From assembly GCA_965371225.1 (NCBI GenBank), contig CBDUXP010000007.1, forward strand, positions 28,392 through 92,391: a stretch of 64,000 nucleotides of DNA, read 5' to 3'. How positions within the stretch are numbered: the stretch's first letter is position 1; every line of letters begins with the position of its first letter. The DNA is from an uncultured bacterium (lineage in GTDB: Bacteria; Abyssobacteria; SURF-5; CBDUXP01). Below are positions 2,959-49,420 of the stretch, piece by piece. The notes under the pieces were generated by a model. It had not been told where the DNA came from. It ran no database searches and saw only the letters and a list, made by a program, of their open reading frames with translations. The position numbers were made by a program, and so were the translations under genes.

Positions 2959-3211
2959 ACGCCGCGGCGCCACCACCCGCAACTGCGGTGCTGACCGGGC
3001 TCGCGCGCTTCAACAAGCTCTTTGTCGTCTGGGTGGTGTTGTGCAGCGCCATCGGGGTCGTTGTGCCCGCGGCGTTTGCGTAGTTCCGCCCGTTCATCGT
3101 CCCCGGGCGATCAGTCGGCCTCCTGACCGGGCCCAAGCCGCGGGGGCGGGGCGGCATTGAGGCGCCCGGGGCCGGGTGATACACTTCTAACGCATAGCGT
3201 CACGAGCCTTT

Positions 3212-4456
3212 GTGACGCCATGTGAAACTGCTGTGATTCGCCGTATTCCACAGGCGGCTTGGTTGAGCGTTCTGCTCGCCATGGCGCCGATTCACCACCG
3301 GCCGGCCGGGGGGGAAGCCGCTGTCCCGCCCGCCCAGCCTGCCCCGCGTGCCGTGCCACCGGCCGTACGCGCGCAACTTCACGCGCCGGAACCCGCCGAG
3401 CGCATCCGGGCAGTACGCGGGTTGGCCCCCTACGGTCAAAATGCCGTCGAACCGCTGTTTGCCATGCTGACGGACCCCGAGCCCTCCGTCCGCTGGGCCG
3501 CGCTCGGCACCCTCAACAGCTTGCAACACGCCGACCTGGTCCCGCCCATCCTCGCCGCCCTCCCCAGCGCGGACGAGCGGATGCAGGTGCGCCTGTATTT
3601 CCTGCTCGCGCGGCATGCGGACCGCCGGACCTGGGACACGCTCGTGGCTGGCCTGGGACACACGGACAAGAACGTCCGGCAGGTCTGTGCGGACGGGCTG
3701 ACCCGCACCGCACAGCCCGGTGATGAAGCCGTGCTCGGGAAGGCGTTGGCGACGGCCTCCCCCGCCGTGGCGCTGGGGCTGGTCCAAGCCCTGGCACCGC
3801 TCGGTACGCCGGAGGCAGCCGCCGCCCTGGCGCCCCTGCTGCAGCACGAGGACGCCACGTACCGGCAGTACGGCGCGCAGGGGCTGGCCGAACTGGGCCG
3901 ACCGGAAGCGGTGGCGTACCTGACGCAGCATCTTCACGACTCGTCTGCCGAAGTGCGGTCGTGGGTGTACTACGGCATCAGCCAGCATGGCGACGGGAGC
4001 ACCTTCGACATCCTTCTGGCCGGCACCGCCGACCCGGATGCCTACATCCGCAAGGAAAGCGCTTGGGGCCTCGGTCGGCTCGCAGACGCGCGGGCCCTGT
4101 CCGCGCTGCAGGGCGCCCTGACAGACGAGGAACCTACGGTGCGCGGGAGCGCGGCCGAGGCGCTGGGGATGCTCAACCACCCGGCAGCACTGCCCGATCT
4201 GCAGCGTGCCGCCGCGGACCCCGACCCGACCGTCCGTTTGCTGGCCGCAGAATCCCTGCTCCGCCTGGGGGATGCGAGCGGGACTGCCGAACTGATCGAG
4301 AACCTGCGCCATGACAACCGGCACTTCCGCCGAGTCGCGTTACGCGGCCTGACGCTGTACAGCGGGCAAGCTTTCGGCGGCGATTACGACGCGTGGAAGG
4401 CGTGGTGGGCCGCGCAATCGGCCACCCCCGTCCCGCCGCCGGCAGGCCAGGAGTAG
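3212..4456 (+). CDS. HEAT-repeat (PBS-lyase-like) protein with an N-terminal signal-like segment
   Basis: Repeated ~30-aa units carry a D/E-P-x-x-x-V-R core (EPSVRWAALGTL, DKNVRQVCADGL, DAYIRKESAWGLGRL, EPTVRGSAAEALGML, DPTVRLLAAESLLRL). A hydrophobic N-terminus follows RRIPQAAWLSVLLAMAP. The stop lies 2 nt before the patatin start. Confidence 0.7.
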   Translation: MTPCETAVIRRIPQAAWLSVLLAMAPIHHRPAGGEAAVPPAQPAPRAVPPAVRAQLHAPEPAERIRAVRGLAPYGQNAVEPLFAMLTDPEPSVRWAALGTLNSLQHADLVPPILAALPSADERMQVRLYFLLARHADRRTWDTLVAGLGHTDKNVRQVCADGLTRTAQPGDEAVLGKALATASPAVALGLVQALAPLGTPEAAAALAPLLQHEDATYRQYGAQGLAELGRPEAVAYLTQHLHDSSAEVRSWVYYGISQHGDGSTFDILLAGTADPDAYIRKESAWGLGRLADARALSALQGALTDEEPTVRGSAAEALGMLNHPAALPDLQRAAADPDPTVRLLAAESLLRLGDASGTAELIENLRHDNRHFRRVALRGLTLYSGQAFGGDYDAWKAWWAAQSATPVPPPAGQE

Positions 4457-6804: not shown

Positions 6805-8568
6805 CTAGCCGCTGGGGCCTGGTGCGGCGGATGCCCGCCGGCCCGCGCGCACCGCCACGACCAAGCTGCACAGCAGCGCGCTCGCGGCGACGCCCATGAA
6901 TTGCAAGAGCCCCACGAGCAGGACCGCGACGGCCGGGTCGCGCTGATCCCAAGGGTGGGGGTCTAGCCCGAAGCCCACTAAAAAGACGGCAGCGCCCGCC
7001 GTCGCCACCGCGGCCAGGCCGCCCGCCACGCTGGCAACCACGCTGCCGAACTTCGGCGCCGCCGCGGTCTGGCGGCGCGCAAGCCAACGGGCCGTGAGGT
7101 AGGCCGCTATCAGCCCCAGCGCGCCCTCGCCGAATCGCGGGAGGGCGAACGGGGCAAGCCCCCGACGGCCCGGGCCGCTCAGGCTGTACCCGTTTCCCCC
7201 GGCCAGGAACAGCCCTACGGGCACAAGGACCCCGACCGCGATACCGGCGATCAGCCAAACGGGCGGGTTCTTCGCGGGGGGCGCGCCCGCGCGCGCGGCC
7301 CGCCGGCGCAGGAGCCCCGAGAGAACCATGGCCCCGAGTCCCAGGCCGGTCGCCGCATAGAGCCGCGGCCGTAAGAACCGCTGGGCGGCGAGGGCCAAGT
7401 GCTCGTGCCACCGAAAGCGCAACGCAGAGGCCAGGTTGGCCGCTTCCGACCACGCCAGCTTCCACTGCTGCGCGCCCAGCGCCGCATCCACCAGGTCGGT
7501 CCGCAAACCCCGCGGCATCGGCGCATCCAACTGCGGATCGGCCAGACCCAGCCGGTCGAGGCGGAAGCGATACGCTTGCAACCGTTGCGCCACCGTATCG
7601 CGCCCGCGGCGCGCGCGAACTTCCGGCGCACAGTCCAGCGCGTCATACAGGGGCCAGCCTTCGTTGTGGGTCGGGATGGGTGTCCCCAGCAGCCACGCCA
7701 CGGTCGAGGCGAGGTCCCCCTGCTCCGCCTGACCCGCGGTACCTGGCCGAATGCCCGCGCCCGCTAACACGCAGGGCACAGTCGCCACGACCGGTTCTCC
7801 GCCCATGTGCCCGCCGCGGTCCAGGTGCCCGTGATCGGCGGTGACTACGAGCGTCTCGCGCGTGAAGTCCAGCGCCCGAGCAATCTCCCCAATGCGTTCC
7901 CCCGTCCGCCGGGCCATCTCCAGATACTCGGGGGACGCACCACCCGCCACGTGGCCGGCGCGGTCCACGATGTCAAAGTGCACCCAGATCAGATTCGGTG
8001 CGTCCGGTTGGGCCAACACTTCGAGCAGGCGGGGCAGCAGGACGTCATCGTCCGCGTAGCCCGGCGCGCTCGGCAGCGAATTCGGCGCATCCAGAAACTG
8101 TTCGAGCGCGTACGGGGAGCGCCACGTCACGACGTTGCCCGTGCGCAACCCTGCCTGATGCGCCGCAGTGTAGATACTGCCGAACGTCCGGTAAAAGCCG
8201 GGGCCGACCGCGGCCGCTCCGGTGTTGTTGAGCATGCCGATGGTGAGTTGCGGCGCGCCGGTGGCAATCACATGCGAGAGCGGGATGGAGGCGGTGGGCG
8301 GCGCCACGCTCAGCGTCCAGTCGGCACCCTGCTCCCGGAGGGTATTGAGCGACGCCATCGCTCGCGACGCGTCCACGCGCAAGCCGTCCACCACGCACAG
8401 CACCACCCGCTCCGTCAGCGGCTCCCCCGCCGGACCCCACGGTAGCGGCTCAGCGAACGGCGTGCGGTACAGCGTCGCGCGGGCGTTCAGTTGCGTGAGC
8501 AGCCCCGCGCCGCACACTCCCAACGCCGCAACCAGGAACAGGAGTCGCGCAGGCGTAAATCGGAACAT
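6805..8568 (-). CDS. Alkaline-phosphatase-superfamily enzyme (nucleotide pyrophosphatase/phosphodiesterase-like) with a C-terminal multi-TM anchor
   Basis: Metal-ligand motifs of the AP/NPP fold (VVDGLRVD near the N-terminus, VTADHGH later). The C-terminal ~200 aa are strongly hydrophobic. Confidence 0.6.
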   Translation of the reverse strand: MFRFTPARLLFLVAALGVCGAGLLTQLNARATLYRTPFAEPLPWGPAGEPLTERVVLCVVDGLRVDASRAMASLNTLREQGADWTLSVAPPTASIPLSHVIATGAPQLTIGMLNNTGAAAVGPGFYRTFGSIYTAAHQAGLRTGNVVTWRSPYALEQFLDAPNSLPSAPGYADDDVLLPRLLEVLAQPDAPNLIWVHFDIVDRAGHVAGGASPEYLEMARRTGERIGEIARALDFTRETLVVTADHGHLDRGGHMGGEPVVATVPCVLAGAGIRPGTAGQAEQGDLASTVAWLLGTPIPTHNEGWPLYDALDCAPEVRARRGRDTVAQRLQAYRFRLDRLGLADPQLDAPMPRGLRTDLVDAALGAQQWKLAWSEAANLASALRFRWHEHLALAAQRFLRPRLYAATGLGLGAMVLSGLLRRRAARAGAPPAKNPPVWLIAGIAVGVLVPVGLFLAGGNGYSLSGPGRRGLAPFALPRFGEGALGLIAAYLTARWLARRQTAAAPKFGSVVASVAGGLAAVATAGAAVFLVGFGLDPHPWDQRDPAVAVLLVGLLQFMGVAASALLCSLVVAVRAGRRASAAPGPSG

Positions 8569-37597: not shown

Positions 37598-38572
37598 TTA
37601 CACGCCAACCGGCACCGGCTCCGCCACGGGGCACAGATGAGGCGACAAGGCGCGGAAAAAGGCCAGATCGTGGCGGTGCGAGGATTTCACCACCGTGAAG
37701 TGGCACCCCTCCAGCGGCCCGGCCAAGGCGACGGTGCCGAGGAAATCGATGATCTTGTGCCGCACGAATTCGTCCGCCACCCCCCCGTACCGCACCGGTC
37801 CGCGAACCCGGCCCCGCTCCATAATCAACATGCTCTGTTCGGAGATGCCGGTCCCCAGTCCGTACCGCGGGTAGAAGAGGCGCGCCCCGAAGCGCACGAG
37901 GGCCGATGGCAGCCACGCGTACTGGTTCATCAATGTGCGCGCCCGGCTGACCTGGTCCCGAAACGCGACGGGCTCCACGTCCAACGTCACCGTGGCGTCA
38001 GGGATGCCCAGATGTGGGTAGCCGCCCGTATACGTCACGCGCAGGCCGGGTCCCGGTTCCACGCGGACGGAGTCTCCCCGCTGGGCATCCGTCAGCTCGA
38101 AGGGCGCACTCACGGTGCGCGGACGCCGCGGCGCAGGCTGTGTCACCACCCCCGCCGCCTCGATGGCGGCGATGAAGCCTTCCGTGCTGTCGGCAAGCAA
38201 GGGCAGCGCCTGGCGGTGGAAGAGCTTGGGCCAGAGCCCCGGCTTCTCGAGGACGACGGTCGCGTTATCGATGCCCCACGCGACGAAAACCGCGTTCAGG
38301 TGTTCCACGTTCGTGATGACGGTGTCGCCGTCCTGGAGACAGATGCACCGATCCCGATTCGTCGCCGTCTCCAGCGTCGCGGGCACGGGCACGGATTCCA
38401 AGACGACGGTGTCGCGATCGGCTCGCCCCAGGGCATACCGCAAGCCCGACTCCGGTCGGGCGGGTAACACGCGGACGCGGGTGCGGGCCCCGCTCTGCAG
38501 CTCCTGCCCGGCGACCCACGCCGTCGGCGCGGCCAGCGTCCGTTGCCGTGTGCGGCTAATAACCGGCCGCAC
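37598..38572 (-). CDS. lpxC: UDP-3-O-acyl-N-acetylglucosamine deacetylase LpxC
   Basis: LpxC motifs EFVRHKIIDFLG and HRHD, and overall family similarity. Confidence 0.85.
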   Translation of the reverse strand: MRPVISRTRQRTLAAPTAWVAGQELQSGARTRVRVLPARPESGLRYALGRADRDTVVLESVPVPATLETATNRDRCICLQDGDTVITNVEHLNAVFVAWGIDNATVVLEKPGLWPKLFHRQALPLLADSTEGFIAAIEAAGVVTQPAPRRPRTVSAPFELTDAQRGDSVRVEPGPGLRVTYTGGYPHLGIPDATVTLDVEPVAFRDQVSRARTLMNQYAWLPSALVRFGARLFYPRYGLGTGISEQSMLIMERGRVRGPVRYGGVADEFVRHKIIDFLGTVALAGPLEGCHFTVVKSSHRHDLAFFRALSPHLCPVAEPVPVGV

Positions 38573-40373
38573 CCCCTTCGCGGCGGGGATCGCTTCCCCC
38601 CATGATCAAGCCCGTGTCCGCCTCGACCCAGATGGCCTGCACATCGCCGAAGGACCGCCGCCGGACGGGCGACCCCCCCTCGACGGCATGGCCCCGCCCC
38701 TCCAGTTCCGACTGGACCTCGGGCGCCAGGGCAAAGCGCTCCGCCCCCAGGACGGGCGGGAGCCACTGGTGGTGGACCCGCGGCGCGTCAACCGCTTCCT
38801 GCACGGTCATGCCGAAGTCCACCATGTTGATGATGGTTTGTAGGACGGCGGTGATAATCCTGCTGCCACCGGGACTCCCGAGAACCAAGGCGACCCGGCC
38901 GTCCTTCGACAGGAGGGTCGGCGTCATGCTGCTCAGGGGAATCTTGCCCGGCGCCACGGCATTCGCTTCTCCCCCGACGAGCCCGTACAGATTGGGCACG
39001 CCGGGCTTCGCGCTGAAATCATCCATCTCGTTGTTCAGGAAGATGCCCGTCCGCCCCGCCACCACGCCCGCGCCAAAGTTCGCATTCAGCGTCTGCGTCA
39101 GCGCGACCGCGTTCCCCCAGCGATCCACCACGGAGAGGTGCGTCGTCTGCCCGGACTCGTAGCGCAGAGGGGTCCCCGGAGCGATGTCCTCGCTGGGCCG
39201 GGCCCAGTCCGGCGCGATGGCCATGCGCAGTTCCTCGGCGTACTCCTTGGACGTGAGACCGCGCACCGGCACCCTGACGAATGCGGGATCGCCGAGGAAC
39301 TTGGACCGGTCCGCATACGCCAGCTTCATGGTTTCCGCCAGGCGGTGCGTGTAGTCCACCGAGCCATAGCCCCAGGCGGCCAGGTCGTACCCCTCGAGCA
39401 CGTTCAACATCTGGAGCAGGTGCACGCCGCCGGAGCTGGGGGGCGGCATAGACCACACGTCGTAACCCCGGTAGGTGCCGTGCACGGGCATCCGAATCAT
39501 CGGCCGGTAGTTGGCGAGGTCCGCACGCGTGATGAGTCCGCCATGCGCCGCCATATCCTCCGCGATGGCCGCCGCAATCCGCCCGTGGTAGAAATCCTGC
39601 CACCCGGCCCGCGCGAGCCGCTTGAGCGTTCGGGCCAGCTGGCGTTGGCGGAGCAGGGTGCCTTCCGGCAGCGGGTCACCTTCATCGGTGAGGAGGATGG
39701 CCGCCGCCTCGGCATCGGTCGCCAACACGGCGCGCCGGCTGCGAATGGCCCGATGCAAGTGGGCGCTGACAGGAACGCCCCGGTCCGCAAGCCGAATGGC
39801 AGGGCGCAGGACAGTGCCGAGCCGCCTGGTGCCGTAGTCCTGGAGCGCGAGCGCCAAGCCGGCCACGCCCCCCGGCACTCCCGCGGCCAAGTACCCGTCG
39901 ACGCTCCGCCGCGGTACCACCTGGCCCGACTCGTCCAAGTACATATCGCGGGAGGCCGCCGCCGGCGCTTTCTCGCGAAAATCGATCACGACCACGTTCT
40001 GCTGCGCCGCGCGATAGATCAGCATGAACCCGCCGCCGCCGATGACTCCCGCGTACGGGGTGACCACGTTCAACGCGAACGAGGTGGCCACAGCCGCGTC
40101 CACCGCGGTCCCGCCATCACGCAAGACCTGCACGCCGACTTCCGAGGCGAGGGGATGCCCACTGACGACCACGCCGTTACGCGCGGCAAGGGGGCGCCGC
40201 GACGCGGCGGCCACCGGCGTACTCGGCGAAGCGAGCAGCCCCGCGGCGATGGAGAGGATGACGAGGCGAGGCACGTAGTGGTTCATAGGTTTCGTCGCTT
40301 CCGCGGTGCAGCGTGGGACGCCCGGATGGGTCAAGCGGTGCGGCGCATTATAGCGATGACGGCCCCTGCGCAC
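38556..40373 (-). CDS. ggt: Gamma-glutamyltransferase
   Basis: GGT signature around the autoprocessing Thr (GQTTHLSVVDRWGNAVALTQTLN) and a signal peptide. Confidence 0.9.
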   Translation of the reverse strand: MRRGRHRYNAPHRLTHPGVPRCTAEATKPMNHYVPRLVILSIAAGLLASPSTPVAAASRRPLAARNGVVVSGHPLASEVGVQVLRDGGTAVDAAVATSFALNVVTPYAGVIGGGGFMLIYRAAQQNVVVIDFREKAPAAASRDMYLDESGQVVPRRSVDGYLAAGVPGGVAGLALALQDYGTRRLGTVLRPAIRLADRGVPVSAHLHRAIRSRRAVLATDAEAAAILLTDEGDPLPEGTLLRQRQLARTLKRLARAGWQDFYHGRIAAAIAEDMAAHGGLITRADLANYRPMIRMPVHGTYRGYDVWSMPPPSSGGVHLLQMLNVLEGYDLAAWGYGSVDYTHRLAETMKLAYADRSKFLGDPAFVRVPVRGLTSKEYAEELRMAIAPDWARPSEDIAPGTPLRYESGQTTHLSVVDRWGNAVALTQTLNANFGAGVVAGRTGIFLNNEMDDFSAKPGVPNLYGLVGGEANAVAPGKIPLSSMTPTLLSKDGRVALVLGSPGGSRIITAVLQTIINMVDFGMTVQEAVDAPRVHHQWLPPVLGAERFALAPEVQSELEGRGHAVEGGSPVRRRSFGDVQAIWVEADTGLIMGGSDPRREGGAAGY

Positions 40374-40499
40374 CCCGGTTGCGCGAGGCGGGGGCGTTTG
40401 TTAACATGCCACCGTTAGAGTCTATTGCCGGTCACCGACCATGGAGTTGGGCGCGGGGGACGCGCCCGGGGGTCCGGGGCGCGTCGGGAAAGGCAGCAG

Positions 40500-40943
40500 A
40501 TGGCGAAGATCCTGATCGCTGACGATGAGGGCGATCTCCTCGAAGTCATGCGGGCAACGCTGGAGGCCACCGGGCATAAGGTGGGGACCGCGCGCGACGG
40601 CGTCATCGCGCGCAAGATGCTCGCGAAATTCCCGTTCGACTGTGCCATTCTGGATGTGGTGATGCCCCGGCTCAATGGGGTAGCACTGCTGAAGATGATC
40701 CGGAAGAGCCGCTCCCGCCAGAATCTGCCGGTCTGCCTGATGACCGCGAATCCACAAGAGCGCGATGCCCTGCTGAAAAGTGAAGGCTTGGCCGCCGATG
40801 TCCTCCTCATCAAGCCCTTCAATACCATGGATCTCATCGAGGCCGTGACGGCGATGACCGAGGCGGGCACAAGTCAGCCCGATGAGCAGGGCCGGCGCCT
40901 GAAAACCACCCTCCCCGGCCGGCACCGGACCACGAGCATCTGA
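40500..40943 (+). CDS. Single-domain response regulator (CheY-like receiver)
   Basis: Starts MAKILIADDEGDLLEV. The phospho-acceptor is in CAILDVVMPRLNG and a conserved Lys sits in LLIKPF. There is no output domain. This is the first gene of a co-directional cluster. Confidence 0.75.
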   Translation: MAKILIADDEGDLLEVMRATLEATGHKVGTARDGVIARKMLAKFPFDCAILDVVMPRLNGVALLKMIRKSRSRQNLPVCLMTANPQERDALLKSEGLAADVLLIKPFNTMDLIEAVTAMTEAGTSQPDEQGRRLKTTLPGRHRTTSI

Positions 40944-41037
40944 GCCCGGGCCGCCGGCGACCCTGGTGCCCCACCGCCGAGGGTGCGGTAGAATTAGAAT
41001 AGAATACGGCTGCTCCGGCAGCGTTTCGCTGACCCCT

Positions 41038-41514
41038 ATGGCACAGACTTGGGCTGAACACGAATCCTGCGCCCGGTGCGGCGCCTCCCTGGGCGGGGAG
41101 TTCCGCACAAATCACCTGGGGGTCCGGTTCTGCCAAACCTGCTATGAGGATAGCGTGGTCCCCCGCGCAGCGGAGCGGAGCCCGGACCCCGTCCTGGAAC
41201 AGGTGTGCAATCGCTGCCGGGGCTCCCTGATCAATGGCTACCACGCAAATTACATGGGCGTCCTCTTCTGCACCGCGTGTTTCGAGCGGACGCACACGCC
41301 GGAAGGCCGGCCACGCGCGGACTGGGCAGAACGCGAGGCGCTGAGCGTGGCCCAACAGCCCCGCGACCGGGATGAGGACGGGGACGCGCCTGCCGGCGAG
41401 GATGAAGAGGGCATCTATCTTCACGACGTCTTTTTCGTCACGACGATTCTCGCCCTGGTGATGTACGCGGTGTCGCGCTTCGGCGGCGCGCTGCTAGCCC
41501 TCGGCGGCTACTAG
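41038..41514 (+). CDS. Tandem zinc-ribbon protein with an acidic linker and a C-terminal TM anchor
   Basis: Two C-x2-C-x17-C-x2-C modules (CARCGASLGGEFRTNHLGVRFCQTCY and CNRCRGSLINGYHANYMGVLFCTACF), a Glu/Asp-rich stretch, and a C-terminal hydrophobic helix. There is a 4-nt gap to the archease gene. Confidence 0.45.
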   Translation: MAQTWAEHESCARCGASLGGEFRTNHLGVRFCQTCYEDSVVPRAAERSPDPVLEQVCNRCRGSLINGYHANYMGVLFCTACFERTHTPEGRPRADWAEREALSVAQQPRDRDEDGDAPAGEDEEGIYLHDVFFVTTILALVMYAVSRFGGALLALGGY

Positions 41515-41518
41515 CCGC

Positions 41519-41947
41519 GTGCCCGCCGCAACGTTCGAGCGGATCGACCACACGGCCGACGTCGGCTTGCGTCTCCTGGCCCCCACCGAAGCCGACCTGT
41601 TCGTCACGGCGGTCGCGGGCCTGCACGCACTCTGGGGGCTTCCCGCGCCCGAGCCGCCGGCGGGCGCGCCGACGGAGCCACTGGAAGTGCATGGGGCGGA
41701 CATCGAAAGCCTCCTGGTCGCCTGGCTGAACGAATTGATCTTTCAAGCGACGGCGGCGGGGCGAGTGGCCGCGAGCGTGCAGGAGCCCTGCCTGGCGGAC
41801 GGCCGGTTCCGGGCGGAGGTGGCCTGGCAGCCCGTACAGTGGGACACCTCGGTGGACGGGGCGGACATCAAGGCGGCCACCTACCACACCGTACACGTGA
41901 CCGAAACGGCGGAAGGCTTCACCACGACGATCATCTTCGACGTGTGA
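41519..41947 (+). CDS. Archease (RtcB activator)
   Basis: N-terminal FERIDHTADVG motif and an archease-length protein immediately upstream of rtcB. Confidence 0.8.
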   Translation: MPAATFERIDHTADVGLRLLAPTEADLFVTAVAGLHALWGLPAPEPPAGAPTEPLEVHGADIESLLVAWLNELIFQATAAGRVAASVQEPCLADGRFRAEVAWQPVQWDTSVDGADIKAATYHTVHVTETAEGFTTTIIFDV

Positions 41948-41963
41948 GCCGGCCAGGCGGGCA

Positions 41964-43496
41964 ATGCTGATGGGCTGGTTGAAGCGGAAAAAGCCAAAGA
42001 AGCGGCGCGACGCGATCGTGGCGCGCACCCTCGACGTCGACGGCGACGCGTCGGCCCTGACGTACAACCGCGTCTCGGACGTGCTCTGGGAGATCCCCCG
42101 CACCGGGAACATGCGCGTGCCCGCGCGGATCTACGCGACCCGGGCTGGCCTGGAACGCATCAAACAGGACAAAGCCCCGCTCCAGGCCGTGAATGTGGCG
42201 CACCTGCCCGGCATCGTGAAGTATTCCCTCGCCATGCCGGACATCCATTGGGGCTACGGGTTTCCCATCGGTGGCGTGGCCGCAACCGACCCGGCCGAGG
42301 GGGGCGTTATCTCGCCCGGCGGCGTCGGCTATGACATCAATTGCGGGTGCCGCCTGGTGACCACCGGCCTAACGCGGGAGGAGGTGCAGCCCAAGATGGC
42401 GGCGCTCGTGAATCGCTTGTTCGAACAGATTCCCACGGGGGTCGGCGCAAACCACGCCATCGATAAGCTCTCGGTCGCGCAGCTGCGCAAGCTCATCGTC
42501 GATGGGGCGGAGTACGCGACCGCCCAGGGGTATGGCGACGCCGCCGAGCTGGACCACATCGAAGGAGGCGGTAAGTTCGAGGGTGCCGATCCGAAAGCGC
42601 CCTCGACCAAAGCGTTTCAGCGGGGGATCAATTCCGTCGGCACCCTCGGCTCCGGGAATCATTTCCTCGAAGTGGGGTACGTGGACGAACTGTACGATAC
42701 CGCCACCGCCGCGGCATTCGGCCTTGTCGAAGGCATGGTGACGGTCCTCATCCACACCGGCTCGCGCGGCTTCGGCCATCAGGTGTGCGTCGATCATTTG
42801 GAGCAGATGTCGCATGCCGGCCGCAAATACGATCTGCACCTGCCCGACCGGCAGTTGGCAGCCGCCCCTATCGAATCACCAGAGGGGGAACAGTACCTGA
42901 CCGCTATGGGGTGCGCGGCGAATTACGCGTGGGTGAACCGGCAAGTCATCCAGCAGTTGGCCCGCGACGCGTTCATGCACGTGTTCGATATATCGCCGAC
43001 AGACTTGGCGTGGCGGCTGTTGTACGATGTCTGCCATAACATCGCCAAGATGGAGACCCATACCGTGGACGGTGAGGCGCGTCGGCTGTGCGTCCATCGC
43101 AAGGGGGCGACTCGCGCGTTCCCTTCGGGGCATCCGGACCTCCCGCCGGCGTTCCGGACGACCGGCCAACCCGTACTCATCCCAGGGGACATGGGGCGAG
43201 GCTCCTTCGTGTGCGTCGGTCTCCCGGGAGCCATGGAGGAAACGTTCGGCAGCACGTGCCACGGCGCGGGGCGCGCTATGAGCCGCCGCCAGGCATTGAA
43301 GCGCGCAAAAGGGCGCTCGATCGTGGACGAACTTCGACAGCAGGGCATTATCGTGAAAGCGAAAAGTCACGCCACCATCGGGGAAGAAATGCCCGAGGCA
43401 TACAAGGACGCCACCGACGTGGTGAGGGTTGTGGACCGTGCCGGCATCAGTCGGACCGTGGCCAAGCTCCGCCCGCTGGGCGTCATTAAGGGATAA
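41964..43496 (+). CDS. rtcB: RNA-splicing ligase RtcB (3'-phosphate/5'-hydroxyl RNA ligase)
   Basis: Full-length RtcB with metal/GTP-binding histidines (DIHWGYGFPIGG, GYDINCGCRL, GSGNHFLEV, HTGSRGFGHQV, the nucleophile His in STCHGAGR). Confidence 0.9.
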   Translation: MLMGWLKRKKPKKRRDAIVARTLDVDGDASALTYNRVSDVLWEIPRTGNMRVPARIYATRAGLERIKQDKAPLQAVNVAHLPGIVKYSLAMPDIHWGYGFPIGGVAATDPAEGGVISPGGVGYDINCGCRLVTTGLTREEVQPKMAALVNRLFEQIPTGVGANHAIDKLSVAQLRKLIVDGAEYATAQGYGDAAELDHIEGGGKFEGADPKAPSTKAFQRGINSVGTLGSGNHFLEVGYVDELYDTATAAAFGLVEGMVTVLIHTGSRGFGHQVCVDHLEQMSHAGRKYDLHLPDRQLAAAPIESPEGEQYLTAMGCAANYAWVNRQVIQQLARDAFMHVFDISPTDLAWRLLYDVCHNIAKMETHTVDGEARRLCVHRKGATRAFPSGHPDLPPAFRTTGQPVLIPGDMGRGSFVCVGLPGAMEETFGSTCHGAGRAMSRRQALKRAKGRSIVDELRQQGIIVKAKSHATIGEEMPEAYKDATDVVRVVDRAGISRTVAKLRPLGVIKG

Positions 43497-43498
43497 GC

Positions 43499-44983
43499 AT
43501 GCCCACACCGTCTCCCTCCCCCACGCGGGTCATGGTCATTGCCGACACGCAGGACGGACTGAACGCCGCCGCGCAGGCGCTTCGCGACTGGGCCACAGAA
43601 GCCGGCCAGAACCTGGAGCTGCTCGCGGTCCACGGGCTGGGGGGCGCGCAGGCGCACCTGCATCAGTACATCAACCTCGTCGTCCTCAACTACGTGGGCC
43701 TCCCCGCCGCCCGCGCCATCCCCACCCTGGCCGGACTGCGGGACGCCTACTGCGGGCCCGCGATCGTGGTCAGCGACGACGCCACGGTGGATTCCTGCAC
43801 GTGGGGCCGGCGATACAGCGCGGATTACCATGCGGATGCGCTGGCCGCGCTGGGCGGATACGTGGCCAAAGTGCTCGAGCGGGACCGGCCGCAGGGAAAG
43901 ACGGCGCTCGTGTTCGCCGGTGGCGGCATCCTCGGCGGGTTCAACGAGGCGGGCAGCTTGAAAGCCCTCTACGACTTCGGCATTCGCGAGGCCGACATGT
44001 ACATCGGCCTCAGTGCCGGCTCGTGGGTGGCGGCCATGGCGGCGAACGATGTCACGCCCGAACTGATGATCGAACACCCCCATCTGCACCCGCGCGACTT
44101 CTACCAGTTGAACGGCCGGGACATACTGCGCCAGCTCACCATGTTGGGGCCCAACGTGGTCCGGAGCCTCGCCCAGCGCGTCCTGCATCCGGACAGCGAT
44201 TGGCTCTTCCAACTCTCCAGTATCTTCACCACCTCGCCTCTGACCGGGGACCGGCTGCGGCAGCGGTTCTGCGAGGTGCTCGGCCAGGAGGGGGGCACCA
44301 ACGATTTCGGCGAACTCCGGGAACGCGGGCGGGAACTGTACATCATGGCCGTGGAACTGGATTCCGCCGAACGTCGGGTGTTCGGCGAGGGCGACGACAT
44401 CCACGTCCCCATCTCGGAGGCCGTCAGCGCCTCGTCGGCGCTCCCGATGTTCTACCGGCCGGTGCATATCGACGGCCGCGACTACGTGGACGGTGGGCTC
44501 GCGCGCTCCGCCTGCATCGACACCGCGATTGACAACGGCGCCGACCTCATCGTGTGTCTCAATCCCCTGGTGCCCTACACGGGTGGGGATCCGGGGCACA
44601 TCAAAGCGTTGGGCCTGGCGGGCATCGCCGAGCAGAGCGTGCGCGCGCTCATCCACTCCCGCCTGCACGCGACGGTGGAACGGTTCCGGCAGATTCACCC
44701 GCACGTGACGATCCTCCTCATCGAACCCGATACGAACGATCCCGCCATGTTCCACAACCCCCTGCGCGGGAGCGAGAATATGATTCAACTGGCCGCGCTG
44801 GAGGGATTCAAGTCGACCAAGGCGTTCCTGGAAGAACGGTCGGAATTCATCCAGCATATCTTCGCCAGCCACGGGCGCACGCTAGCCGTCCCGGCCGCGG
44901 ACGATGCGGGAGCCGGAGACGTGCCGTTCGACCACATGCCCGAGACCTGGGTGGACGATCCGGACGTTCAGGAACTGGCGTGA
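43499..44983 (+). CDS. Patatin-like phospholipase, paralog of the 4459..5943 gene, with an N-terminal pseudo-receiver domain
   Basis: Patatin motifs FAGGGILGG, GLSAG and YVDGGL. The N-terminal receiver-like pattern (VMVIAD...NLVVLNYVG...AIVVSDD) is co-linear with the first paralog. The start is 2 nt after the rtcB stop. Confidence 0.8.
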   Translation: MPTPSPSPTRVMVIADTQDGLNAAAQALRDWATEAGQNLELLAVHGLGGAQAHLHQYINLVVLNYVGLPAARAIPTLAGLRDAYCGPAIVVSDDATVDSCTWGRRYSADYHADALAALGGYVAKVLERDRPQGKTALVFAGGGILGGFNEAGSLKALYDFGIREADMYIGLSAGSWVAAMAANDVTPELMIEHPHLHPRDFYQLNGRDILRQLTMLGPNVVRSLAQRVLHPDSDWLFQLSSIFTTSPLTGDRLRQRFCEVLGQEGGTNDFGELRERGRELYIMAVELDSAERRVFGEGDDIHVPISEAVSASSALPMFYRPVHIDGRDYVDGGLARSACIDTAIDNGADLIVCLNPLVPYTGGDPGHIKALGLAGIAEQSVRALIHSRLHATVERFRQIHPHVTILLIEPDTNDPAMFHNPLRGSENMIQLAALEGFKSTKAFLEERSEFIQHIFASHGRTLAVPAADDAGAGDVPFDHMPETWVDDPDVQELA

Positions 44984-45507
44984 TGCCCCTGGAACGGGCG
45001 TTTTGCGGCCGGCGCCTGGAACTCCTGCAAGGGGACATCACCGAGCAAGCGACCGACGCCATCGTCAACGCGGCGAATAACCATCTCGTCCTCGGTGCGG
45101 GCGTGGCCGGGGCGATTCGGACGAAGGGCGGGCCGAGCATTCAGGAGGAGTGCACCCGTCTGGGCCCCATCCCGATAGGGGAAGCAGCCGTGACCGGGGC
45201 CGGGAACCTTGCGGCCCGCCACGTGATTCATGCGGCAAGCATGGGCGATGAACCGGTCAGCGCCAGGTCGTTGCGGGACAGCACGCACAACAGCTTGAAA
45301 CGCGCGAGGGAACTCGGGTTGACCTCTATCAGCTTTCCCGCCATCGGGACGGGGATCGGTGGCTTCTCGCTCCACGAAGCCGCGACGATCATGCTCGGCA
45401 CCGCCAAGGAGCACTTGGAAGCCGACACGACGCTGGACCTCGTCCGCTTCGTTCTGTGGAGCGAGGCCGATTACCAGGCGTTTGAGACGATCCTTAACCG
45501 GCTCTAG
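44983..45507 (+). CDS. Macro-domain protein (MacroD/YmdB-type ADP-ribose/O-acetyl-ADP-ribose hydrolase)
   Basis: Motifs VNAANNHLVLGAGVAGAI and AIGTGIGGF. The ATG overlaps the patatin stop in TGATG. Confidence 0.85.
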   Translation: MPLERAFCGRRLELLQGDITEQATDAIVNAANNHLVLGAGVAGAIRTKGGPSIQEECTRLGPIPIGEAAVTGAGNLAARHVIHAASMGDEPVSARSLRDSTHNSLKRARELGLTSISFPAIGTGIGGFSLHEAATIMLGTAKEHLEADTTLDLVRFVLWSEADYQAFETILNRL

Positions 45508-45559
45508 ACCGGTCCGGCGGCGGCGCCCGTGGCTGGCGGCGTTGGTAGTCGGAACCGCG

Positions 45560-48391
45560 ATGCCAGCCGTGGCAGCGGCCGCGCCACCCGCACCGCCCGA
45601 CCCGGTCGCGGTCCTGGTTCCAGGCGGCCCGCAAGACTTCTGGGGCTGGACCCTCGGTCCGCGTACCATGCCCGAGGGGCTGCACGCGACCGTGCGGTTC
45701 GCAGGCTGGTCCGAGACCGCCACCCGCGAAGCGTTGCTGGAGAGCATGGTGGCCGGAACCGCGGCGGATCTCGTCCTGCTGCGGCCCCAGGACGTGCCCC
45801 CCTTGGCGGACGCCGGCCTCCTGGCCGACCTGGCTGACGAACCCGCCGTGGCTCAGGTGCGCACGCACGCCGGCGCCGGAGTGGTGTCGTGCATCGCCGA
45901 CGGTGATGCCGTGTGGGGTATCGCGGCAGGGTTGACGCTGCCGCTCGTGCTCATCCGGCCGGAACACGCCACCGGCCTACCCATCCCCGACACGTGGGCG
46001 GCGTTCTTCGCTCGCCTGCCGAGCCCCGCACGGGACAACGGCGTCGCGCTGGACCCGGGCCAACTGGAACTGACCTTCGACTGGTTGCGCCGCCGCGCGC
46101 AGCTCCGGCTGGACGCGACGGGAATGGACGCGCCCGCCGCCTGGGGCGCGTGTCTGACGCTCCTGCGCCGCTTGCACTCGACGCCGAGCGCTACGCGGTT
46201 CTGGCAGAAGCGTTGGTCGCCGGCCGTGCCCACCTTTCGGCGCGGCCGCGCCGCGGTGGCCATCGCCGACACGGAGGCATTGCGGGATACGACACCCGGC
46301 ATAACCGGCACGCACGCGATGCCCCTGCCGGCCATCGGTGCGGGCGGCGACCGGTATCCCGTCGCGGTGGCCGGCGTGTGGGTGGTGCCCGCGGGGACGG
46401 ACGTGACGCGGGTTCGGCCGCTGCTCGCGTTCGTCACCAGTGCGGCATTCGCCGCGCGCCTGGCGCAGCACCACGGGTGGGCGCCCGTACGCACCGATGC
46501 CTGGGACCTGATGGGCGCGCTGCTCGAACGCATTCCCGCCTGGCAGACCGTGCAGCGGCTCTTGCAAGGAGCGGTCCGGACCGAGGCGGAAGGGCCCGGG
46601 GTAGATGCGCGACGCGTGCGCATGGCCCGAGCCGCTGGGCTCTGGCTCTCGGGCGTGCATCCCGACCCAGCCGCTGCGTGGCGGGCTGCGCAGGCCGCGG
46701 AATGGCAGGCCGCTCCGCCGCTACCCCAGCCGTTTCTGCGAATCGCGTCGGCGTCGATGAAGGCATCCACGTCGACAGAGGTGCCGAGAACCCTGGCACA
46801 AGGCGAGACGGCGCTGCTTGAACTCGCCGCCCCGCCGCCCAAGTCGCTGGCCGGCGCGGGGGAGGTCGTCGTCTACGCGCGTGTGAACGGGCGAGCAATC
46901 CCGTTGCCGGCCCAGTTGGCCTTCGTGACCGGCGAACGGGATGCTCTGCGCCCGGCCGGAGTGGGACAGACAGCCGCGCCGCCGACCGCCCGATACTTCG
47001 TCGACGTGCACGTACCGTTCGGTACACCACTAGGCCGGTACGACCTCACCCTTGCGCCGGGCGGGGACACCGGGGGATCCTCGGACGGGATGCCGATCGG
47101 ATCCGTGCGAGTGACCGCGATCCCGACCGACGAGCGAACGGTACCCGCCTTGTGCGGGTTGGGCCTGCCGGCAGGCTCTCCGTACACGGACGCGGTACGC
47201 ACCCTGCTGCTCGATCACGGTTTTACTCCTTTCCCCCTGCCGCTCGATGCGCCGCTCGTGGCCGATCCCCGGCGCGGGCCTCTCGTGTTGCGACGCTGGC
47301 ACGATCCCACGCAAGCTGAGCGTGACGCGCACGCGGCCGGGGAGGCGGGGGTGCTGGCGGACGTGCTCGAGTATTCGTACGACGAACCGACGCTCCTCCA
47401 CTTTCCGCACCTGCGACACGAAGCGGCGCGGTACCAGGCGCTGGGCGTACGGGTGCTCGCGACGCATCCGCCCGATCCGCTGTTGGCAGGGACCGCGCAG
47501 GTGTGGGGTGTGCACACGGCCCTGCGGCCGACGCACACGCCGAGCACGCCGGACGCGTGGCGCACGGTGGTCCGACGCATGGCGGATGCCCGGGCGCGGG
47601 GGGAAGACGTGTGGTGGTATACCGCGGGGGATGTCGCCCCCCTCCCCAGCCTGCAGCTCCACGCGAACCTGACGCGCCTCCGCGCCGCCTTTTTTCGGTT
47701 GCCCGCGTTGGGATTCTCGGGCGTGCTTCAGCCGGAGGCGGCGGCGTGGGGTCCCGACCCCGGCGAATTAGACCGGGGGGCGCTGGGGGTCGGCGAGGGA
47801 ATTCTGTGCTTTCCGGCACGCGATGGCTCGGCGGTGGTCCGACCCAGCGTCCGCCTGAAGGCCTTGCGCGAGGGACGGTGGACCCTCCACCTGCTCGCCC
47901 AGTTACACCGGCAGCTCGCGGCGCGGACGGCGGCACTGCCGGACGGCGCGGCGTGGACGGCATACCCGGCGGAACGGCTAGCGGCGTACGGTCGCGCGGT
48001 GGTCAGACCTGAGGCGTTAGCGCTCGGTGACGCCGTGCATCCGCTCATGCACCTCACCACGGATCCCAGGCACTTGGCGACGGTCGCGCGCGCATTGCGC
48101 CTGGAACTCGAGGGGGCATTCAGGGGACCGTGGCTGCTGGTACGCGCGGACGTGCCGGACTGGAGCGTGACGACCGCGGACCGCGTCACGCTCTCCGGCC
48201 GCGTCCCGGCCCAGGGGACGGTATCCGTCGCGGGGCGACGCGTCGTGACCACCGCGAACGGGAATTTTACCGTGACACCGATGCTGGACCTTGGCTTGAC
48301 CCTGCTCGACATCGAGGTCCGCTCGGGCGGGAAGGCGCATCGCATGACGTGGCACGTGTGGCGCGCCGCCGGCCCGTTGTCTGGCGCATAG
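45560..48391 (+). CDS. Large hypothetical protein. The N-terminal ~400 aa resemble an ABC-type extracellular solute-binding protein (family 1) without a signal peptide. The C-terminal ~550 aa are uncharacterised.
   Basis: 944 aa from the first plausible ATG after the macro-domain gene (a TTG at 45542 is also possible). The N-terminal pattern FWGW...AADLVLL...DAGLLADL...GDAVWGIA is typical of sugar-SBP folds. Confidence 0.5.
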   Translation: MPAVAAAAPPAPPDPVAVLVPGGPQDFWGWTLGPRTMPEGLHATVRFAGWSETATREALLESMVAGTAADLVLLRPQDVPPLADAGLLADLADEPAVAQVRTHAGAGVVSCIADGDAVWGIAAGLTLPLVLIRPEHATGLPIPDTWAAFFARLPSPARDNGVALDPGQLELTFDWLRRRAQLRLDATGMDAPAAWGACLTLLRRLHSTPSATRFWQKRWSPAVPTFRRGRAAVAIADTEALRDTTPGITGTHAMPLPAIGAGGDRYPVAVAGVWVVPAGTDVTRVRPLLAFVTSAAFAARLAQHHGWAPVRTDAWDLMGALLERIPAWQTVQRLLQGAVRTEAEGPGVDARRVRMARAAGLWLSGVHPDPAAAWRAAQAAEWQAAPPLPQPFLRIASASMKASTSTEVPRTLAQGETALLELAAPPPKSLAGAGEVVVYARVNGRAIPLPAQLAFVTGERDALRPAGVGQTAAPPTARYFVDVHVPFGTPLGRYDLTLAPGGDTGGSSDGMPIGSVRVTAIPTDERTVPALCGLGLPAGSPYTDAVRTLLLDHGFTPFPLPLDAPLVADPRRGPLVLRRWHDPTQAERDAHAAGEAGVLADVLEYSYDEPTLLHFPHLRHEAARYQALGVRVLATHPPDPLLAGTAQVWGVHTALRPTHTPSTPDAWRTVVRRMADARARGEDVWWYTAGDVAPLPSLQLHANLTRLRAAFFRLPALGFSGVLQPEAAAWGPDPGELDRGALGVGEGILCFPARDGSAVVRPSVRLKALREGRWTLHLLAQLHRQLAARTAALPDGAAWTAYPAERLAAYGRAVVRPEALALGDAVHPLMHLTTDPRHLATVARALRLELEGAFRGPWLLVRADVPDWSVTTADRVTLSGRVPAQGTVSVAGRRVVTTANGNFTVTPMLDLGLTLLDIEVRSGGKAHRMTWHVWRAAGPLSGA

Positions 48392-48469
48392 GCCTGTGTT
48401 ACCATGCGCCGAACGCACGTTCGGACACGTGTAACCCCCTGCCCTCGTTAGGCTAACGACAGCGCACGC

Positions 48470-49420
48470 ATGGGCCGCACCGGCTTCCTCACCCATGAGA
48501 GCTTTCTCCTGCACGACACGGGCCCCAGGCACCCGGAGCAGCCGGACCGCCTCCGGGCCATCTGGAACAAGGTCGATAACTCCCCTATTGCTAAAGACTT
48601 AGCGAGACCGGAAGTGCAGGCCGTGCCCTTCGCCGAGGCGGAGCGCTGTCATGGGCAAGGCGTAATCGACACGGCGGAGCGGGTCTTTGCGACCGAGGGC
48701 CTCGGCTACTTGGACGGGGACACCGTGGCGGGACCCGGGACCCAAGAGGCGGCGTGCCGGGCCATCGGGGCCGGGCGACTGGCGGCCGACCTGGTGGCGG
48801 CCGGTGAGCTGACGAATGCGTTTTGCGCCGTGCGGCCCCCCGGCCATCACGCAACACCCTCTCGTTCCATGGGCTTCTGCGTGTTCAACAATGTCGCTTT
48901 GCTGGCCCGCACTTTGCAGGACGACCACGGGGCGGAACGAATCCTGATCGTGGACTGGGACGTCCACCACGGGAACGGCACGCAGGACATCTTCTACGAC
49001 GATCCGGCGGTGCTGTACTTCAGCGTGCACCAGTCCCCGCACTATCCCGGCACGGGCGCCGCCACCGAAACGGGCGGTGGTCCCGGGCGCGGCGCCACCC
49101 TGAACGTACCGCTGCCCGCGGGCGCCGGCGATGCTGAATACGGCGCCATCTTCGAGAAGATTCTCGTGCCCGCCGCAGACGCGTTCTGCCCGGACTGGGT
49201 CCTGGTGTCAGCGGGGTTCGATGCCCACGCGGCCGACCCGCTCGGGGGCATGGCGCTCAGTGCCGCCGGATTCGCGGCCCTGACCGATCGGGTGACGGCG
49301 ATCGCAGCGCGCCACTGTGGCGGACGGTGCATCAGCTATCTGGAGGGGGGCTACGATCTCGAGGGGCTGGCGGACTCGGTCGCCGCCCACCTGGAACGGC
49401 TGCAGGCCGCAGCCGCGTAA
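48470..49420 (+). CDS. Histone-deacetylase-family protein (acetoin utilisation AcuC/HDAC-like amidohydrolase)
   Basis: HDAC signatures RPPGHHA, DWDVHHGNGT and YLEGGY. Confidence 0.85.
   Translation: MGRTGFLTHESFLLHDTGPRHPEQPDRLRAIWNKVDNSPIAKDLARPEVQAVPFAEAERCHGQGVIDTAERVFATEGLGYLDGDTVAGPGTQEAACRAIGAGRLAADLVAAGELTNAFCAVRPPGHHATPSRSMGFCVFNNVALLARTLQDDHGAERILIVDWDVHHGNGTQDIFYDDPAVLYFSVHQSPHYPGTGAATETGGGPGRGATLNVPLPAGAGDAEYGAIFEKILVPAADAFCPDWVLVSAGFDAHAADPLGGMALSAAGFAALTDRVTAIAARHCGGRCISYLEGGYDLEGLADSVAAHLERLQAAAA

Follow-up and report, generated by a model that had tools for sequence, protein, structure and literature searches.

A zinc-finger gene at the head of an archease–rtcB operon

The window analysed here is a stretch of 64,000 nucleotides (nt) of DNA from an uncultured bacterium (contig CBDUXP010000007.1 of assembly GCA_965371225.1, forward-strand positions 28,392 to 92,391). 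Its plus strand carries, at 41038..41514, a gene for a tail-anchored protein of 158 amino acids (aa) with tandem C4 zinc fingers, which we call ZnF and which stands between the gene for a receiver-only response regulator and the genes for archease and the RNA ligase RtcB. ZnF probably serves RNA repair as a regulator or adaptor peculiar to its lineages. Our more specific reading, to which we give a probability of roughly 40%, is that it acts as a protein-interaction adaptor linking the receiver with archease and RtcB.

The open reading frame (ORF) extends over 158 codons, from an ATG at 41038 to a TAG at 41512-41514. Its G+C content at the three codon positions (0.69/0.50/0.81) is like that of the neighbouring genes, and the other frames are without this pattern. 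Comparison of the window protein with two orthologues gave ratios of non-synonymous to synonymous substitution rates (dN/dS) of 0.12-0.26 for the finger domain, 0.26-0.32 for the hydrophobic tail and 0.34-0.94 for the acidic linker. Because third-position G+C agrees with the neighbours and dN/dS is low in the finger domain, the ORF is a genuine gene under purifying selection, and codon-position composition and dN/dS alike support the assumption of an earlier note on this DNA that the frame is translated. A longer start, at GTG 40966, is not supported, as the added stretch has a non-coding G+C pattern and the homologues begin at the ATG.

The receiver, archease, rtcB, patatin and macro genes also lie on the plus strand. 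The upstream neighbour is the receiver-only (CheY-like) response regulator (40500..40943; Pfam Response_reg, 1.7e-21), which has no output domain, is the orphan receiver of the earlier note and is separated from the ZnF gene by a spacer of 94 nt. Downstream follow archease (41519..41947; Pfam Archease, 7.6e-25; GTG start), the RtcB RNA ligase (41964..43496; Pfam RtcB, 7.6e-168), a patatin-like phospholipase (43499..44983) that begins 2 nt past the rtcB stop, and a Macro-domain protein (44983..45507; Pfam Macro, 1.1e-33), whose ATG overlaps the patatin TGA. By family, the neighbours in the window are GGT, response regulator, archease, RtcB, patatin and Macro. The ZnF gene does lie immediately upstream of archease and RtcB, as stated earlier, with archease beginning 4 nt beyond its stop. 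Together with this junction, those between archease and rtcB (16 nt), rtcB and patatin (2 nt) and patatin and macro (-1 nt) point to co-translation, and the five genes from znf to macro form a compact operon headed by the ZnF gene.

Within the spacer between the receiver and ZnF genes, an AT-rich element made of three overlapping TAGAAT hexamers (40989..41005, plus strand) could be read from the sequence. It is an AT-rich island in a genome of 67% G+C, lies 33-49 nt before the ZnF ATG and is possibly a -10-like promoter element; it may act as a promoter internal to the locus, after the receiver gene and ahead of the ZnF operon. A comparable AT-rich patch occurs at another locus, L001. A consensus scan for promoters and terminators returned nothing convincing and called neither this element nor any sigma-70 promoter, and Rfam found no RNA families in 38000-48500.

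Architecture of the protein and extent of its family

The CxxC pairs of ZnF begin at residues 11, 32, 57 and 78 and make up two C-x2-C-x17-C-x2-C modules with 21 residues between them. Zinc module 1 (C11-x2-C14-x17-C32-x2-C35; 41068..41142, plus strand) is preceded by a conserved W5-x-E7; zinc module 2 (C57-x2-C60-x17-C78-x2-C81; 41206..41280, plus strand) contains an invariant L-I-N-G and then a nearly invariant Y68. The two are homologous duplicates (hhalign probability 98.5%), and the description of them as near-identical applies to their spacing but not to their sequence, which is 38% identical (12/32). Beyond the fingers lies an acidic, fast-evolving linker, RDRDEDGDAPAGEDEEG (residues 109-125; 41362..41412, plus strand), also recognised in the earlier note; net charge over residues 91-127 is -7 in the window protein, and the linker charge is -7 to -9 across all members of its clade (clade A, below). 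The protein ends in a hydrophobic C-terminal tail anchor, LHDVFFVTTILALVMYAVSRFGGALLALGGY (41419..41511, plus strand), recognised from hydropathy, dN/dS and a predicted helix. The hydrophobic segment covers approximately residues 128-157 (Kyte-Doolittle maximum 1.92; hydropathy peak at 124-157 of 158 residues). Having one hydrophobic helix, placed at the very C-terminus, and no signal peptide, the window protein has the features of a tail-anchored protein, and its N-terminal domain would be cytoplasmic (N-in topology).

ZnF belongs to a small family. Among 5.8 billion proteins, a word-indexed search picked out 9 relatives, and an exhaustive search of 1.84 billion cluster representatives with a hidden Markov model yielded only 8 at E<1e-10; after a profile search the family totalled 46 sequences. 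Scanning the genome collection with the clade-A alignment gave zero relatives, and the window protein falls under no curated Pfam or NCBIfam model, its top matches lying below the cutoffs. The family is confined to two lineages, the high-GC clade of the window (clade A) and an Abyssobacteria-like clade (clade B). Clade A comprises 9 members, all from the window's lineage (66-69% G+C) and each with one C-terminal helix. The genomes behind clade B have 49-59% G+C and were labelled Abyssobacteria, Poribacteria or Lindowbacteria by the submitters of the metagenome-assembled genomes (MAGs). Judging from the identity of 72-90% among clade-B RtcB proteins, clade B is one lineage with inconsistent phylum labels. 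Loci L088 and L094, for example, encode RtcB proteins that are 90% identical, in MAGs labelled 'Candidatus Poribacteria' and 'Candidatus Lindowbacteria', respectively, with long-range synteny with an Abyssobacteria contig. NCBI taxonomy puts Abyssobacteria within Hydrogenedentota.

Clade B includes a long form of ~200 aa with three hydrophobic helices and a short, soluble form of 73-125 aa. An ORF encoding a transmembrane (TM) segment was sought downstream of the short forms and none was found. The occurrence of such short soluble forms indicates that the finger domain is the conserved core of the family and that membrane anchoring is common yet dispensable. The single C-terminal TM anchor proposed earlier is therefore correct for the window protein and does not serve as a hallmark of the family, one sub-clade of which has no membrane part. 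At L094, a same-frame ORF fragment after the short ZnF gene (7625-7786, 'TLLIAAPFIILGR') is a faint match to the final TM helix seen in long forms, and here the membrane domain appears to have decayed with the fingers retained. At L100 (429-1052), an in-frame stop at 570-572 breaks the ZnF frame; a pseudogene, a sequencing error or recoding are all possible. Four short members (P0012, P0019, P0045 and P0049) carry the IMG name 'formylmethanofuran dehydrogenase subunit E', which is probably an annotation artefact arising from zinc-finger similarity alone.

Conservation is concentrated in the fingers. Residues C32, C35, C57, C60, C78, C81, G28, F31, L64-I65-N66-G67 and G74-V75 are invariant in 46/46 members, and C11, A12, R13, C14, W5, E7, R30, S63 and Y68 are nearly so (>=90% of the 46), the exceptions at C11 and C14 being calls whose N-terminus is incomplete, P0051 for example. 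Among the conserved motifs are CARC and LINGY, and the cysteine spacing of 17/21/17 is retained in 43 of the 46 members. Three remote matches, P0016-P0018 (E ~1e-4), were left out as other multi-finger proteins from unrelated contexts. One of them, P0017 (L090, 6001-6438), has three similar C4 modules and is encoded within a type VI secretion cluster of a Desulfobacterales MAG, which shows that the finger module is present in other bacterial contexts.

The Cys4 modules are expected to bind zinc, and eight conserved cysteines forming two such sites would also suit a zinc-thiolate redox or metal switch, in which release of zinc under oxidation or metal stress alters the hold of ZnF on RtcB or archease and thereby protects or regulates a ligase with an oxidation-sensitive cysteine in its active site. 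Cys4 zinc sites serve as redox switches in RsrA and Hsp33. In addition, metazoan RTCB is oxidatively inactivated and requires a protector, PYROXD1 (PMC12263435). However, a structural zinc site and a sensing one look alike in sequence, the conserved gene block contains no redox enzyme, and a switch of this kind would leave the partnership with the receiver unexplained. We accordingly hold this explanation to be quite unlikely.

Fold of the fingers

An AlphaFold2 model computed from the 46-sequence alignment had a mean predicted local distance difference test score (pLDDT) of 81.8, with values >90 in module 1 and of 90-92 in module 2. Each module is predicted to form a knuckle and a beta-hairpin, followed by a helix that opens at the second CxxC (33-46; 79-85). 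The linker is predicted to be disordered (pLDDT ~50) and the C-terminus to form a long helix (124-156; pLDDT 79-96). As a predicted helix begins at the second CxxC in both modules, and as the best matches are to LIM and GATA fingers, the fold is probably a treble clef, of the type of the second half of LIM or with GATA spacing. The earlier label of 'zinc ribbon' was thus right about the C4 modules and probably wrong about the fold, as the model places helices at C32/C35 and C78/C81. Weak Pfam matches to DZR and Zn_ribbon_IS1595 were also seen among the members.

LIM (PF00412) was the commonest Pfam match, found in 42/46 members (E<=0.1; lowest value, 1.5e-6). The window protein itself reaches 16.1 bits against a gathering cutoff of 22.9; four of the six members scanned singly (P0046, P0022, P0048 and P0047) pass the gathering score, at 26.5-28.8 bits. 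These matches span only profile positions ~22-56 of 58, which correspond to the second LIM finger, and a complete two-finger LIM domain is not present, there being no His or Cys ligands between C35 and C57 and the modules lying 21 residues apart. Consistently, the best profile match in the PDB was the second finger of PINCH LIM4 (1nyp; E=0.023), in an alignment of zinc module 1 that pairs W-x-E-H-x-x-C-A-R-C with the LIM motif 'WHvEHFvCakC'. The C4 finger of DksA/TraR was considered and rejected: NF008243 reaches 17.6 bits where its cutoff is 96, the predicted model has no N-terminal coiled coil, and PF01258 matches just 7/46 members, below its gathering score.

The best Foldseek matches were the tandem fingers of GATA1 and GATA3 (E ~1e-3), with identical cysteine spacing, both modules (x17) having the GATA-type C-x2-C-x17/18-C-x2-C pattern. 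Taken with the RNA-repair context of the gene, this resemblance could indicate a nucleic-acid-binding accessory, the fingers either bringing broken RNA to RtcB close to the membrane or acting as a tethered, DNA-binding autoregulator. The TM-scores of these matches are just 0.18-0.29, however, and the window protein has neither a Pfam GATA match at E<=1 nor the basic C-terminal tail by which GATA fingers contact DNA. Moreover, its finger domain (residues 1-90) contains 0 Lys, has a net charge of -2 and is followed by the acidic linker, and over the family the net charge of this domain spans -5 to +5. The suggestion of a nucleic-acid-binding sensor found no support in a finger domain of this composition, and we regard such a role as unlikely.

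Resemblance to zinc-finger anti-sigma factors had also been proposed. The window protein is small and membrane-anchored, with an N-terminal cytoplasmic Cys-rich domain and a gene adjoining the operon that it would regulate, and H8-x2-C11-x2-C14 looks superficially like the motif of ZAS-type factors; on this explanation ZnF would be a membrane anti-sigma factor controlling transcription of the operon. The motif is nevertheless H-x2-C instead of H-x3-C, and H8 becomes Q, N or R in other members. The zf-HC2 family (PF13490) was unmatched in the window protein at E<=1 and was outside the 25 commonest of the 50 families matched by the 46 members (E<=0.1). The fold points the same way, being a predicted beta-hairpin and helix and not a helical anti-sigma domain. 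Furthermore, the Pfam listings of 10 neighbourhoods contain no Sigma70_r2/r4 or ECF gene, a periplasmic (extracytoplasmic) domain is absent, and soluble forms occur. The proposal is largely refuted by these results, and we consider it very improbable.

Conservation of the locus

We recovered 17 distinct loci carrying the ZnF gene. Same-strand archease and RtcB genes come after it in all 16 informative loci, the receiver gene is upstream of it in 11 of the 12 that were informative, and the ZnF–archease junction measures 2-30 nt in the long forms. As a control we used 80 GTDB rtcB loci of other phyla, with RtcB proteins 54-61% identical to that of the window. Archease adjoins rtcB in 68 of these, and a ZnF gene or an adjoining receiver gene in none (0/80). 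The check proposed in the earlier note, whether orthologous rtcB loci carry the same small protein, therefore has a positive answer in the two lineages that hold the family and a negative one in the other phyla sampled.

Between clades A and B, RtcB identity is 60-62%, which is not above that to other phyla, and the genes beyond the conserved block vary from locus to locus. With RtcB divergence between the clades at the level of phyla and differing flanks outside the block, it is unlikely that the order receiver–ZnF–archease–RtcB has been conserved through mere inertia. A Macro gene is also found downstream of rtcB in both clades, its product in the window being 60-62% identical to those of clade B; between RtcB and Macro lies a patatin gene in clade A and a DUF498 gene in clade B. 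PADLOC reports a weak DarG-like match for the Macro domain, and it assigned ZnF, archease and RtcB to no defence system.

Gene order of this kind might nonetheless come without a functional tie, if the receiver and ZnF were a separate, membrane-associated chemotaxis-like or stress switch kept beside archease and rtcB by shared ancestry. Carriers are limited to two related lineages; the block also holds apparently unrelated genes, of the SBP/GH123 and VanZ types; in clade B a histidine kinase gene and a HEAT-repeat gene adjoin the receiver; and at L088 an insertion splits ZnF from archease with the fingers kept. Set against this are the junctions of 2-30 nt, which in all long forms suggest operon coupling, the persistence of the ZnF–archease pair at L003 after loss of the receiver, and the retention of the block at 60% RtcB identity with outer flanks that are not conserved. 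On balance we find an unconnected neighbour rather unlikely.

Some of these loci also weigh against the adaptor that we favour. L003, in clade A, is without the receiver to which ZnF would connect. At L088 (8398-9057), in clade B, an opposite-strand methyltransferase gene lies between ZnF and archease; ZnF is truncated there (103 aa, no TM segment), in a MAG labelled Poribacteria. The large SBP/GH123-like gene that follows Macro is seemingly unrelated yet within the conserved block. No fusion of the response regulator to ZnF was found among the 46 members. Finally, only two deep lineages are sampled, and these amount to few independent evolutionary samples.

The receiver and RtcB

The receiver is catalytically intact, its five phospho-acceptor residues (D8, D9, D52, T82 and K105) being invariant in 9 orthologues from ZnF loci, and the receiver of the window shares 47-49% identity with its clade-B orthologues. 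Its sole constant neighbour is the ZnF protein. At three clade-B loci (L088, L093 and L094), the divergent genes upstream of the receiver encode a histidine kinase, a HEAT-repeat protein and a 74-aa ORF. The kinase is sensor-less and ~240 aa long (HisKA+HATPase_c), and these divergent genes may be the cognate kinase module of the receiver. Within the 64-kb window no histidine kinase like that of clade B was found; a distant homologue of the HEAT-repeat protein is encoded at 3191-4453.

RtcB of the window, like that of L001, bears a polybasic N-terminal extension, MLMGWLKRKKPKKRRD (41964-42050; KRKKPKKRR), which L003, clade B and the other phyla examined all lack. Pairing of this extension with the acidic linker of ZnF was considered and rejected, because the ZnF protein of L003 (P0007) has the linker and its RtcB is without the extension.

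A candidate adaptor of RNA repair

The adaptor reading draws on the intact receiver, the LIM-like fingers, their neutral-to-acidic charge and the tight gene packing. In the window's genome, the disordered acidic linker and the C-terminal tail anchor would tether the fingers to the inner side of the membrane, where the finger domain would be the docking or output partner of a receiver that has no output domain of its own. The receiver would dock onto the fingers in a phosphorylation-dependent manner, and the resulting complex might modulate the availability, localisation, activation or membrane proximity of archease–RtcB. Action would be post-translational and not transcriptional. ZnF would contact the receiver, archease–RtcB or both, and regulation could run in either direction. 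In ClpX, the N-domain binds zinc at a C4 site. CpdR, a single-domain receiver, works through this N-domain and provides a precedent (PMC5422525).

The idea in the earlier note that ZnF and the receiver gate the RtcB operon survives in part. A functional link is supported by the conserved order and by the lack of such genes at the control loci, and activity is a likelier target of the gating than expression, since a recognisable DNA-binding domain is found in neither of the two proteins, receiver or ZnF. In its fullest form the hypothesis would describe a phosphorelay-controlled, membrane-tethered LIM/GATA-like adaptor that binds both the receiver and archease/RtcB and switches the ligase on, off or towards the membrane. 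All these parts together make an unlikely combination. If true, bacteria would have a counterpart to the RtcB-dependent ligation of RNA at membranes, and a form of RtcB control unrelated to RtcR.

Comparison with known systems

To our knowledge, bacterial control of RtcB-type RNA repair is largely unexplored beyond the paradigm of RtcR and sigma-54, and the ZnF family offers a concrete candidate for how an RNA ligase may be controlled post-translationally, or localised, in response to a signal. Its reach is limited, as the family is restricted to two uncultured lineages. It is also a probable bacterial case of half-LIM/GATA-like treble-clef fingers that stand alone as a tandem module.

Among known zinc-finger proteins, the best Pfam match of the family is LIM, a protein-interaction module. 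The two have in common a C-x2-C-x17-C-x2-C finger with an aromatic residue after it, and the W-x-E-H of ZnF pairs with 'WHxEHFxCxxC' of LIM. ZnF differs in having only half a LIM domain, without the C2HC first finger; in the 21 residues that separate its modules, where LIM fingers are fused by a 2-residue spacer; and in being membrane-tethered in a bacterial host. With GATA1 and GATA3 it has in common the x2-x17-x2 cysteine spacing, the tandem layout and the treble-clef topology that is predicted for it, but not a sequence-level match or the basic tail, and its charge is neutral to acidic. The ZAS proteins RsrA, ChrR and RslA are likewise small, with a cytoplasmic zinc-binding Cys domain, a membrane anchor and a place beside putative target genes, whereas the motif and predicted fold of ZnF are different, and a partner sigma gene and a periplasmic sensor domain are both missing.

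A model for the mechanism proposed here is the adaptor system of CpdR and ClpX in Caulobacter, where a receiver-only regulator docks on a small zinc-binding domain and not on DNA (PMC5422525). ZnF shares only a generic C4 finger with that system and has no AAA+ partner; the analogy is one of mechanism only. In the rtcBA operon of E. coli and Salmonella, the RNA-repair response is controlled by RtcR, which is encoded beside rtcB (PMC7790460). RtcR is a CARF–AAA+–HTH activator of sigma-54 that senses damaged tRNA, whereas the pair of receiver and ZnF has no DNA-binding domain, and the window has neither RtcR nor RtcA, with archease instead.

The archease–rtcB core is known and widespread as the 'tRNA splicing operon' (PMC3973293, PMC4604427), to which the upstream receiver and ZnF genes are an add-on in two lineages only, with 0/80 elsewhere. 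Our literature search, which did not extend to the RNA-repair survey of Burroughs & Aravind 2016, found no account of the ZnF family or of this add-on. The fold type and the operon core were thus already known; what is new is the ZnF family, its tandem half-LIM architecture with variable anchors, and the strictness with which it is tied to a receiver and to archease–rtcB.

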